Positions 12,928 through 63,007 of a DNA stretch of 64,000 nucleotides are shown here, piece after piece. A program made the position numbers and the translations under genes. Position 1 is the stretch's first letter. Each line of letters starts with the position of its first letter. Origin of the DNA: Octopus vulgaris. Lineage: Eukaryota. The stretch covers positions 51,274,001-51,338,000 of the forward strand of contig OX597817.1 of NCBI GenBank assembly GCA_951406725.2, read 5' to 3'. The notes beneath the pieces are model-generated. The model was not told the origin of the DNA. It was given only the letters and a program-made list of their open reading frames with translations, and did no database searches.

Positions 12928-13021
12928 TTCACTCTGAAGATATTATGCTTAGGTCATATAAATATAAATTTAATATTTACTTAATATTTACTGGATACTA
13001 ATTGAAACAGCTGTAAGGGAA
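12928..13021 (+). ncRNA. Hammerhead-like motif with large stem II
   Basis: TTCACT-CTGAAGA-(63 nt)-GAAAC-AGCT-GTA-AGGGAA. Stem I is 5/6 paired; palindromic ACAGCTGT. Confidence 0.62.
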
Positions 13022-15148
13022 GATGATTAATTTGCTGTTCATAACAAACAATTATTAACTTCCCAATCTCTATTTTTTTTTCTTCTTATACATGCAATAT
13101 AGGTATGTATATCACCCACAGTTGCCCTTAAGCTGCATAAATATGATATCTGTTATGTATATAACGCGCGTTTCTATACTAAACACCTAATATCCATTCG
13201 TACCTCACGGATATGAACAAAGTACGTTTTAGACGAAGTGTTCTGTTTGAATTCATTTCTAAACGGAAGATGTCACCCGTAATTGAAAACAATAAGGGGT
13301 ATAATAAATTCTAGGCTTTTTTTTTTAATTCCTCCGAATTACATTCTTAAAATACTACAAAAATATCAAATAAAATTTAAGGAATCCTGGAGAAAGATTT
13401 TGCTGTTAATTAAGGCAGAGTCCATCATCTTCAAAGCATGTATTCCCCTCCGGTTCTCAGTCTTCCCTAGTTCGTGTTGAACATCAATCGCATTCATGTA
13501 ATGAAATTGGAATGGAGTAAAATACCCTTAGGCTCTGATATTATTCTTTTGATCAAATAATATAACATTTGGATCGTATTTCCCTCAAGGTTGTGGCATG
13601 TCTTGGTGAGATAATCCTGTTTTCTTGGTAATTGAGATAAAGCAGCATTTGTTTGATGTCAGGTAGATTAAAAATAATACTTAGTGGCTAAACAGTGAAA
13701 GGTTTGTTGACACCGTTTCTGTTGACAAATACATCGGAAAGATGAATGGAGAGAGTAGCCTCTCATTTGCCTTACTGGTACAGGCGTGGCTCTGAGGTAC
13801 CAAGTTTACTTCCTAACCACAAGGTTCCTAGTTCAGTCCCACTGCATGGAACATTCGACAAGTGTCTTCTACTAAAAGACTAAAGCCACGTGCATGCATT
13901 TCGTAGCCAGAAACTGGAAGTCCATCGTATTCGTGTGTGTATACGAGTGTATACGTATGAGATATGAAACACACACACACACACATATATAATAATCACG
14001 TTGGACCTCTAAACATCTACATGTTTCTTTGTTCATTCTCTCTCGGTTTATTACCTCTTGTTACTTTCAGAAACATAGAAGTCTTCATTTTCCCGAGCGT
14101 CAGACTAATACACTTGCTTGTTCTTCGTATTTTGTTTTTCTATAATTTTCAACTACACACACACAGACAGAGTCACACACATACAGGCAGACACACACAC
14201 ACATATATATAGGTGTGTTCGTTTACTCCCCTACCACCGCTCCACAAACGGCGTCAGTTGTTCAAGCTAGCCCGTTCGGCAAAATTAACGGGTAGAATAA
14301 GCACCAGGTTTTAAAACTGCAATCGCTGGGATCGATTCCTTCGACCAAAACTCTTTCAATCGATGCCATAGCATGGCTGTAGTCAAATGACGGAAACAAG
14401 TAAAATACAAGAGAAAATTACATGCTGAATTTCCATAGTTAACCCATAAATGTAATCATGTTATATGGTATGCATTAAAGGAAAATATAAAATTTACGAT
14501 CCAGTCTAATGCATGCTTTTATGTTGTTGATATTTTATCGCTTATTATAAATCATGTAAATGGTTTATAATAAGAGATAAGATATCAGCAATATGGAAGT
14601 ATATATGAGATTTATACGACATAAAGCAAGCAGTTTCCTATGTAAAATCGCTTTTAGTATTTATGATATTCATGGCGGTGAAATGACAGAATCGTTAGCA
14701 TCTCCGACAAAATGGCTAACGGTGTTTTGTCCGTCAACATGTTCTGCGTTCAAATTCCGCGCAGTCGACTCTGCAATTTACCCTCACAGAGCTGATAACA
14801 TGAACACAAGTTGAACACTTGGGTCGATTTTCCCCTTGCTTCAAATTCCAGAGCCAAAATTTTAAGTCATTATATGGGGCCAGTCGATTAGATCGGCCCC
14901 AGTGTGCAACTGGTACTTAATTTATCAACGCCGAAAAAATGAAAGGCAGAGTCGACGTCGGTGTAATTTGAACTCAGAACGATACATATGTATATATATA
15001 CATACATACATATACTGATATATAAAAACACACACACACACACACACACACACACATATATATATATATATATATATATATATATATATATATATATATA
15101 TATATATATATATATATATATATATATATATATATATATATATATATA

Positions 15149-15291
15149 TTATTTAAAGCAGCAGAAAATTCAACAAAACCTGTTACAGGTTTTGTTAAAT
15201 TTTCTGCTGCTTTAAATAAAGCATATTACTTTACCACTGATATTTGAGTACTCTTTTTTCCACCTTGTTTCACATTTATGTGTTTACTCCG
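15149..15291 (+). mobile_element. Fold-back element in (TA)n: 35-bp inverted arms plus a unique tail
   Basis: Arms 15149-15183 and 15185-15219 (1 mismatch). Homologous to 31167-31320. Confidence 0.75.
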
Positions 15292-15948
15292 TATATATAT
15301 ATATATATATATATATATATATATAGAGAGAGAGAGAGAGAGAGAGAGAGAGATACATACATACATACATACATACATACATACATACATACATACATAC
15401 ATACATACATACATATCCATAATGTATGCGTATTAAGTTCCCTCAGACCAATGACCAGTCGAAACCACGCATTTCAATCTTTTACCCTTTACTTGTTTCA
15501 CTCACTGGACTGCAGCCATACTGAAGCACTTTTTAAAGGATTTAGTCGAACAAATCTACAGTAGTGTATTCTTTAAGTTTGGGTCACTTTTGTAAAAGCT
15601 TAAGTTTTAGGGACGTAAACAAACCAAAACTAGTTGTCAAGCGATTGGTGTGGGACATGAGGTGTATACATACAAGTGATGACGTTATACATACATATAC
15701 AGATAAATGATAGAAAATGAAATGAACGACATACTTTATTCAAAATCCTTACAATTGTTTCGACACGTGTTTCACACTCGTAGTATATTGCTGAGATATT
15801 CTGTTATTATTATCATTATTATCAGATGATTGATTAAATAAATCCTTAGGTAGATCCTGGTGTAATTTCATTCACTATGAGAATGCATAATTTAAGTACA
15901 GTTATTTTCAGTATTTTACAGTTTTACACGTACAAAATATATACATGC

Positions 15949-16372
15949 AGGCGCAGGAGTGGCAGCCTGGTATGAAGCTTGCTTCCCAACCACAATGTTC
16001 TCGAGTCAGTCCCACTGCGTGGCATCTTTGGCAACTGTCTACTATAGAATTGGGCCAACCAAAGCCTTGTGAGTGGATTGGTTGACGGAAACTGAAAGAA
16101 GCCCGTCGTATATATATATATACATACACACATATATGTATGTATATTTGCATATATATATTTGTGTGTGTGTGTCTGTGTGTCTGTGTTTGTCCCTCCA
16201 CCATCGCTTGGTAACCGATGTCGGTGTGTTTACGTTCCCGTAAACTAGCGGTTCGGCAAAAAGCGACCGATAGAATAAGTACTAGGCTTACAAACAATGG
16301 GTCGATTTGTTCAACTAAAGGTACTGCTCCAGTATGGTCGTAGCCAAATGACTGAAACAAGTAAAAGAATAA
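15949..16372 (+). mobile_element. SINE-A full length
   Basis: Same modules as 8601-9036. Confidence 0.85.
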
Positions 16373-61302: not shown

Positions 61303-61335
61303 ATGTATAATATGTATATATATATATATATATAT

Positions 61336-61581
61336 AGGAAATGAAGAAAATGCTGACAAAATAATTTAAGTAATTTAATTAGGTGAAAGTTCTTTTTACC
61401 GGTTGCGCATTTGTTATGCTTATCAAAAGATATTTTTTTAAGAGAGATTAAAGTTCCTTTCTCATAGATTTTTTCCTCTTACCAGATAAATTACTTAAAT
61501 TACTTAAATTATTTTGTCAGCATTTTCTTCATTTCCTTTTTTATATATCACAACTCGTGTTCCACATCCTCTTTTTTAAAT
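61336..61581. mobile_element. Fold-back element with 43-bp perfect inverted arms and a decayed hammerhead, in (TA)n
   Basis: Arms 61336-61378 and 61495-61537. Minus 61391-61430 reads TCTT-TTGATAA-GCAT AACAA ATGC-GCAA-CCGG-TA-AAAAGA. Confidence 0.65.
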
Positions 61582-62891
61582 ATATATATAGATAGATAGA
61601 TAGAGAGATAGAGAGATAGAGAGAGAGAGAGAGAGAGTGGGCGAGAGAGAGAGGGGGGATATATAGATAGACAGATAGATAGATAAATATAGATATAGAT
61701 ATATATTATACATATATGTATCTATGTATGTCTATATACATATATGCGTTGTCATAATACCTACTTATAAATTTATACGCATGTATAGGTAGCTAAGAAT
61801 CTAGCTAGATACAGTTTACATGTTTACAAGAGAGAATAAAGAGCGAAGGCAACAACAAAAGAAGGTAAAAGAAGCGACTATTGTTAATTAACACGAAATA
61901 TGATATGCAAGACAAAAACAGTAAATCGACAATGATTCCCATCGGTGAATCCTATCAATTCAGCTTCTAATTTGCAGTTGTTAACACATTGAGTTAATTA
62001 TAATCTTGCTTTGAATCTTTCTCGTTTTCACTTAGCAATGTAAAATTGAAGATGATCATATAAATATTCATAAAGCGTTACGCTGGGAGATCTGTTGTTC
62101 TACTTATTGTTTACACTAATTGCATTTTATTGCCTGAAACGCCACGAAACGTAATCAAAAATTTGATATTCTATATCACACATACCATTTATTCACTGTA
62201 CAATTTCGATAATTAAAAATTGGTATAATTACATTTAAAGATATCTGCATATTATTAGAAATATTAGTACATTCTTTTCATTGGTAATAGTTTAAATCTT
62301 TTGTAAAAGATTACATAACGGTTGAATAATTCACAAAATTTGATTACTTAGTATTTCAGTAAGTTTCATATAGCAATTACAAGGATGGTGAGATGACAAA
62401 ATCTTTAGCACGCTAAGCAAAAACGATTAGCGGGTCTTCTCCTGTCTTTACGTTCTGAGATCAAATTTCGCTGTGGTCAACTTTGCTTTTAACTATAAAT
62501 TCCAGCAGATCAATGCCTTGTGAGTAAATTTGGTAGACGAAAGCTGAATAAAGTCAGTCTTATGTGTCTGTGTGTGTGTGTTTGTTTGTGTCTGTATTTC
62601 TATCTCTCTTTATTGATATATACATATATATACATATATAGATAGAGAAATGGATGGATCTAGACACCAGACGCACAAACGCATGTTTGTGTATGTGTGG
62701 GTTTTTGTATGTGTGTGTGTGTGTGGGTCTATGTGTGTGTGTGAATAGTCATATATAAAAGTGTGCTGAGAAGGGAACTAACAGATTAACACCGACTGAT
62801 TCACTAGAGTTGAAGACATCAACTTTGTCCTGTATACAGGCCCAGTTCTTTCCTCTTCCCTCTTCACTTTTATTTAATTTTACGCATTTGT

Positions 62892-63007
62892 ATTAACTCT
62901 GATGAAGCTCCATTTACTGGATCGAATGTGTCATGAAGATGACAAATTTTCGGAATGTCTTTCGTAAGCAACAAGCAGCATTGCAAGCGGAAACGACCGT
63001 AAGAAAT
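62892..63007 (+). ncRNA. Degenerate large-stem-II hammerhead
   Basis: CTGATGA-AGCT...(long insert)...AGCG-GAAAC-GACC-GTA-AG. Stem I is poor. Confidence 0.45.

Follow-up and report, generated by a model that had tools for sequence, protein, structure and literature searches.

Hammerhead motifs in a 64-kb stretch of octopus DNA lie at the 3' ends of several Penelope-like element families

We examined a 64,000-nucleotide stretch of the Octopus vulgaris genome, hereafter the window (G000:C4:51274001-51338000; source assembly of 2.8 Gb in 227 contigs), in which an earlier note made from the sequence alone had described about a dozen type I hammerhead ribozyme motifs. All 12 hammerhead-shaped sites are present at the coordinates given there. 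They belong to nine families, and very probably each represents a type I hammerhead fold in the 3' end (pseudo-long terminal repeat, pseudo-LTR) of its repeat family. Seven of these families lie downstream of the reverse transcriptase (RT)/GIY-YIG genes of Penelope-like elements (PLEs). The motifs likely accumulate because reverse transcription begins at a (TA)n nick, a short way 3' of the hammerhead, and in most cases breaks off early.

The hammerhead sites, their families and their enzymes

The window has a GC content of 35% and is microsatellite-rich throughout, and repeat finding across it was dominated by microsatellites. A homology search with natural family copies identified exactly 12 sites in nine families, which are given below with the PLE copy that contains one of them.

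12928..13021, + strand: family C hammerhead, in a PLE 3' end at about 12855-13112
15744..15831, - strand: family D hammerhead remnant, element about 15680-15921
25757..25792, + strand: family B minimal hammerhead; CTGTNGA (A6U), stem III ACGT without loop
41851..41940, + strand: family A hammerhead, element about 41770-41975
42036..44561, + strand: family E PLE, 5'-truncated copy, 99.8% identical to the young 4,271-bp unit
42038..43837, + strand: RT, CX4CxxC linker and GIY-YIG open reading frame (ORF), Neptune-like; residues 177-775 of family E ORF2
44332..44376, + strand: family E hammerhead; CCGAAGA (U4C), U·U at 10.1/11.1, stem III AGTACT
44638..44743, - strand: family F hammerhead remnant, element about 44590-44845
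51325..51409, - strand: family A, second copy, element about 51295-51586; one change breaks the palindrome
53002..53037, - strand: family B minimal hammerhead, best copy in the window
55194..55213, - strand: family I hammerhead, 3' half alone, 5'-truncated inside stem II
57348..57383, - strand: family B copy with C3 changed
61391..61432, - strand: family G hammerhead-like motif; U3-A8 covariation, A13C, stem III ACCGGT
62894..63006, + strand: family H hammerhead, element about 62838-63165

Family A thus comprises the sites at 41851 (+) and 51325 (-), and family B those at 25761 (+), 53002 (-) and 57348 (-), the same three that had earlier been set apart as a variant family. The family C site at 12928 has the core CTGAAGA, U·U at 10.1/11.1, a stem II span of 63 nt and the stem III ACAGCTGT, while the family A site at 41851 has the core CTGAGGA, a 59-nt stem II span and the stem III ACGATCGT, and its element terminates in the (TA)n preceding the family E insertion. 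For the family E hammerhead we predict a cut after window position 44371. Family H has the core CTGATGA, A·G at 10.1/11.1, an 89-nt stem II span and the family stem III ACGGCCGT, with a stem III mismatch in the window copy at 62892. The family F core is CCGACGA with a 77-nt stem II span, and the window copy at 44639 carries G8 and stem III changes. In the family D copy at 15745 a deletion interrupts the core. The family G site at 61391 has a stem I of 2 bp followed by mismatches, and an inverted 5' piece is found at 61492-61528.

Genome searches with each site as query returned 164 to 3,212 first-look candidates per family, of which 40 were scored for each. For seven of the nine families (A, B, C, E, F, G and I) an RT/GIY-YIG ORF was found upstream, Neptune-like in three cases and Hydra-like in four, in agreement with the earlier assignment of the motifs to PLE ends. 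The family E motif at 44337 is part of the 42038 RT element itself: it forms the 3' end of that element, since window 42036-44561 is a near-identical truncated copy of the full unit. A Neptune-like endonuclease (EN) was located 730-960 nt upstream of family B at four independent loci (L039, L105, L144 and L307) and 710-870 nt upstream of family G at three (L147, L153 and L160). For the Hydra-like group, a GIY-YIG ORF was found upstream of family C in L145 and 1.85 kb upstream of family A in L303, and an EN 2.1-2.6 kb upstream of family I in L308 and L309 and 320-530 nt upstream of family F in L122, L123 and L128, the family F link being made by similarity to the family C protein alone.

The clade assignments follow recognizable motifs. 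Families E, G and B show the Neptune features, namely a CX2-5CxxC linker and a CCHH motif in the C-terminal GIY-YIG domain. The Hydra features are a CxCX5C linker, seen in L303 (family A) and L309 (family I), and CxxC near the conserved E, seen in L145 (family C) and L303, together with the absence of the CCHH motif. Families A, C, F and I are known from degraded ORF fragments with 3' untranslated regions of up to about 2 kb, and the Hydra-like fragments fell below the Pfam cut-off, so that their assignment was made by motifs. As judged from these motifs, at least two PLE lineages contribute the window hammerheads. A long interspersed element (LINE), which we take to be R4/Dong-like, was also observed in L303, L305 and L308, where it lies at TAA-rich tracts within or next to remnants of Hydra-like PLEs.

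Given the ORF links of seven families and the position of the 44337 motif within the 42038 element, the window motifs are best read as 5'-truncated ends of PLEs and not as retrozymes, and their mobilisation cannot be ascribed to one family of enzymes. The earlier proposal that Neptune-type enzymes like that at 42038 mobilise the entire set is not supported, as each linked family has its own ORF and four of these are Hydra-like.

Statistical support and abundance

It might be argued that hammerhead-shaped motifs are chance matches in AT-rich repeats, and two of our observations could be read in this way: monomer folding z-scores were unremarkable, no better than those of shuffles, at six of seven sites, and shuffled samples did yield 0-4 matches per 600 kb. 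The real sample described below, however, yielded 26. Within the window, a strict descriptor (CTGAnGA plus a palindromic stem III) gave one match, a descriptor of CYGAnGA with one stem I mismatch gave three and the widest setting five; the five stringencies used recovered 1, 2, 3, 3 or 5 of the sites, and at every setting all 60 dinucleotide shuffles gave fewer matches than the window itself. A second, relaxed descriptor found four motifs in the window and a total of three across 30 shuffles. The sites missed by the descriptors are decayed copies. No hammerhead was present among the Rfam matches listed for the window (150 of 396), almost all of which were microsatellite-driven, and a genome-wide search with RF00163 placed 6 places over the cut-off among 73 scored, which makes it unfit as a count.

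Comparison within families supplies the strongest test, an out-of-sample one. Where the window copies of families D, F, H and I have lost the core, the palindrome or the 5' half, the majority letters of 13-20 family copies put it back. In family I, copies elsewhere supply the entire 5' half, 100 nt upstream and with a matching stem I, although this half was not used in choosing the site. Stem III is palindromic by commonest letters in all nine families, and stem I, in which both ends of the fold lie and whose sequence had been said to differ between families with pairing kept, is 4-6 bp long in A, B, C, D, E, F and I and 2 bp beside the core in G and H; both earlier statements are borne out to this extent. 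The position at PLE 3' ends is conserved as well. The descriptor counts and family comparisons already refute the chance-match explanation, to which we assign a negligible probability.

To place the window in context we sampled 600 kb of the genome as 60 stretches of 10 kb each, which were taken at round coordinates and came from 27 contigs. The descriptor gave 26 matches in 16 of the stretches; five shuffled versions of the sample gave 0, 1, 3, 4 and 0, and the sample read in reverse gave 2. The 26 matches correspond to about one motif per 25 kb and to an order of 100,000 genome-wide, figures that are rough because the sample represents 0.02% of the genome and the matches are clustered. By homology, 21 natural query copies detected 40 remnants in the sample (one per 15 kb), none in the reversed sample and 12 in the window, whose density is about 2.8 times that of the sample, an excess due in part to a query library built from the window's own families. 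The window is therefore dense but ordinary. The earlier extrapolation from one motif per 5-6 kb to a very large and diverse pool was right as to size and diversity, but the window density does not extend to the genome, where the sample gives about one motif per 25 kb and one remnant per 15 kb.

The sample also contained about a dozen further hammerhead families (in L221, L225, L228-L231, L235, L237, L238, L244, L245 and L264), several with U3-A8 cores and one with a 10-nt palindrome. Copies of one of these, family P, lie 535 bp apart in L237 and may be retrozyme-like. Published counts of about 9,000 in Xenopus and 4,000 in coelacanth (PMC4209133), and of over 6,000 in Acropora and about 5,000 in Mytilus, were obtained with other descriptors and do not compare like for like with ours; our results suggest that such counts may miss motifs with a long stem II or variant cores.

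Insertion ends, core variants and competing explanations

The claim that most motifs abut (TA)n holds: (TA)4 occurs within 130 nt downstream at 7 of 12 sites and within 200 nt at 9 of 12, compared with 20% and 26%, respectively, of 2,000 random window positions. The distance from motif to first (TA)4 clusters at one or two values per family, with peaks at about 120 and 220 for A and at 75 and 116 for G, which is the PLE 'tail' pattern. Family copies end 3' at fixed points adjoining (TA)n and have a second, 'tail' end as well; their 5' ends are scattered, inverted copies are common and tandem copies are present.

In the mechanism that we favor, each family's own RT/endonuclease would nick (TA)n and cDNA would be primed about 50-250 nt downstream of the hammerhead, which would explain why even truncated copies of 150-300 bp carry it. 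The swarm would then result from an RT start just downstream that leaves the motif on short truncated copies. Solo genomic copies are predicted to be mostly inert, because stem III, a palindrome of 4-8 nt, is unstable in the monomer; cleavage would need two motifs paired through the palindrome, in a tandem transcript or between two RNAs, and would probably be assisted by the element's protein. The motif would likely serve to process tandem or read-through transcripts slowly or under regulation, and insertion would not depend on it. For family E, dimer folding has its energy minimum in the double hammerhead, at -18.6 kcal/mol, compared with -1.3 for the monomer fold. Minimal PLE hammerheads are described in PMC4209133 as mostly solo, cleaving weakly and solely as dimers, and PMC11167929 describes RT beginning at two internal sites matching the tail and a hammerhead that cleaves solely when protein is present and is not needed for insertion in vitro. 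Our predictions and the dimer folding results fit both the weak dimer-only and the protein-dependent cleavage described in these accounts.

Family E is very young and is a candidate active PLE. With the 44337 query all 40 scored matches were 100% identical over 151 bp, several of them spaced 4,271 bp apart, and its arrays consist of exact 4,271-bp head-to-tail units, in each of which a single hammerhead precedes the ORF1 ATG by 210 nt. On G000:C1, for example in L141-L144, such arrays comprise up to at least three units, and the ORFs are intact. Relative to the predicted cut, 9 of 34 distinct 3' flanks end at +143 and 20 at +187 to +201, and the remaining 5 continue into ORF1. Of an equal number of distinct 5' flanks, 8 reaching the locus edge were set aside and 26 were kept.

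Several observations weigh against the mechanism proposed above. None of the 26 family E 5' junctions falls at the predicted cut, the nearest being at -60 and +9, and 22 begin upstream of it; the insertion templates were either uncut at the hammerhead or cut and then religated. Of five families folded as dimers, only one had its minimum in the double hammerhead as we constructed it: in the family A dimer the intermolecular stems I and III form but stem II is refolded, and the B, C and G dimers prefer other folds. Dimer cleavage is a prediction. Families D and H had no ORF link among the loci compared, the family C link comes from one locus and that of family A from its sole ORF-bearing locus, and the clade names are motif-based. 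Finally, the canonical core is absent from all 30 copies of B (A6U), all 20 of E (U4C) and all 20 of G (A13C).

The core variants deserve closer consideration. Taking C3 U4 G5 A6 N7 G8 A9 ... G12 A13 A14, A15.1-U16.1 and H17 as canonical, we counted intact cores in 27/30 copies of A, 14/20 of C, 13/20 of H, 9/17 of I, 4/13 of D and 1/20 of F. Family B has U6 in 30/30 copies; of 190 columns 8 are polymorphic, and within the core these are positions 7 and 17 alone. A6 is kept in families related to B within the genome sample. Family G has U3-A8 and C13 in 20/20 copies. A 30-letter family G pattern left open at position 13 matched 1,808 genome places, so that the family has at least 1,808 copies, and position 13 was C in 96, T in 4 and A in none of the 100 matches listed. 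U4C is carried by families E and F, the 10.1/11.1 pair is U·U in A, C and E and A·G in H, and stem II spans reach 100 nt. According to PMC3088659, U4C, U3-A8, U·U at 10.1/11.1 and A6C are reported natural variants, U4C and A6C with low activity; A6U and A13C were not found among the variants reported there, and its supplements may hold them. The fixed changes of the two large families are predicted, from core conservation, to weaken self-cutting. A tentative extension of our reading, which we regard as possible but doubtful, is that octopus-like genomes hold on the order of 100,000 PLE hammerheads largely missed by standard descriptors, B and G having been amplified to thousands of copies with cores unable to cut unaided while keeping fold and palindrome; the motif would then be a protein-bound element for dimerisation or RT positioning, or would be rescued by its own RT protein.

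Two other explanations would give the hammerheads a different part in mobilisation. They could be obligatory processors, tandem transcripts being cut to unit length, ligated into circles and copied for more than one round by RT to give a variable upstream pseudo-LTR. The exact head-to-tail units of family E agree with this, as does the circle model proposed in PMC4209133; the scattered 5' ends are compatible with it too, since the cut would be concealed once ligation had restored the sequence, and variation of the family B core at the tolerant positions 7 and 17 alone suggests selection on the fold. In the account of PMC11167929, however, insertion in vitro was normal with catalytic mutants and no RNA-seq ends mapped to the cut, and family G has reached its high copy number with C or T at position 13 in every match listed. 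We consider obligatory processing unlikely. The motifs could instead mark non-autonomous retrozymes or elements resembling short interspersed elements, mobilised in trans by a Neptune-type enzyme, and the earlier note had indeed spoken of retrozyme-like elements. Most copies are short and lack ORFs, homology of B, C and D among compared loci extends no more than about 200-500 nt upstream, D and H lack an ORF link, and a 2026 preprint (10.64898/2026.07.22.740005) describes a derivation of retrozymes from pseudo-LTRs. Against this, none of the 12 window sites has a short tandem unit, seven of nine families extend upstream into their own RT/GIY-YIG ORF, and the 5' ends are ragged, which leaves this explanation improbable and the retrozyme-like identity without support in the window. 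Arrays of short non-coding tandem units, as in non-LTR retrozymes, were looked for at each of the 12 sites and none was found; a 460-bp local tandem of family A in L011-L013 takes in unrelated repeat sequence.

Family E, neighboring features and known systems

The family E unit in L141 encodes a 430-aa ORF1 (L141:3658-5022, -) and a 775-aa RT/GIY-YIG ORF2 (L141:1424-3751, -). ORF1 had no Pfam match and its C-terminal half is basic. ORF2 overlaps ORF1 in the -1 frame, with a run of seven T inside the overlap, and has no ATG ahead of its conserved N-terminal motif. The shifted frame is kept at 34 of 37 matched junctions, the other three being fused through an extra A; at three more loci, chosen for long frames, ORF1 and ORF2 are fused via other indels. 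ORF1 relatives at 39-53% identity, a mussel protein among them, share an IHF motif that lies at the overlap site and is invariant in three distant relatives. Contigs from four presumed-RNA runs, which are uninformative on cleavage or expression level, cover the unit without joints or indels. No stable hairpin was found after the candidate slippery site (z -0.18; hairpins alone were examined, pseudoknots were not), and no longer, fused ORF1 relatives were found among 3,381 candidates, which is weak evidence. From its sequence, the overlap is a likely candidate for a programmed -1 frameshift. This layout is not new, having already been noted in the literature: the legend to Fig. 1 of Craig et al. 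2021 (PMC8557442) has ORF1 separated by a frameshift in some PLE types.

Other features of the window include a tRNA-Ile (AAT) at 32964-33037 (-), called by both ARAGORN and Rfam, and a tRNA-like stretch near 22010-22110 (-). Two short elements resembling miniature inverted-repeat transposable elements, with long inverted repeats, lie at 58740-58890 and 12087-12234. At 1197-1746 a 185-bp piece of the common short repeat is present in three tandem copies, and a 27-bp minisatellite of 12 copies occupies 4109-4435. Two non-PLE LINE fragments containing the RT C-terminus, at 45008-46012 (-) and 60380-61246 (-), are presumably CR1/L2-like; a weak RVT_1 match covers 60821-61246.

The association of hammerheads with PLEs is already known, and the feature described here is the hammerhead of PLE pseudo-LTRs, for which minimal and variant type I forms were described in metazoans by Cervera and de la Pena 2014 (PMC4209133). 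The octopus motifs resemble those described there in their type I order, in a stem III that is palindromic or missing, in an extra base after A9 (here in family B) and in U3-A8 covariation; in both cases a genome contains many families, and most of the copies are truncated and solo. They differ from them in having a stem II that spans 59-100 nt in six families, in the replacement of G10.1-C11.1 by U·U or A·G in four, and in the family-fixed A6U, A13C and U4C. With the Neptune clade as described in PMC8557442, families E, G and B have in common the RT, CX2-5CxxC linker and GIY-YIG, (TA)n targets, a tail, and tandem and inverted copies, and family E adds its overlapping ORF1. With the Hydra clade of the same source the shared features are the CxCX5C linker (A, I), CxxC near the conserved E (A, C), (TA)n insertion and hammerheads, here known from degraded fragments. 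Non-LTR retrozymes (PMC7229834) have in common a type I hammerhead, low GC and the possibility of very high copy numbers, up to 120,000 in axolotl, but they are described as non-coding tandem units of 150-450 bp, whereas ours are solo truncated ends of coding elements. We found no study of hammerheads in octopus or other cephalopods in the literature, supplements not being covered, and the words 'hammerhead' and 'ribozyme' are absent from the main text of an octopus repeat paper (PMC13282606).

PLE hammerheads are conserved even though their activity in vitro is weak and, in the single reconstituted system, insertion proceeds without them. The abundance and fixed core variants reported here add modest value as test material. 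A young family E with many identical intact copies, together with the high-copy, core-changed families B and G, makes the catalytic need directly testable, and if B and G did spread with cores unable to cut unaided, these families would constitute a natural allelic series for testing the purpose of the motif.

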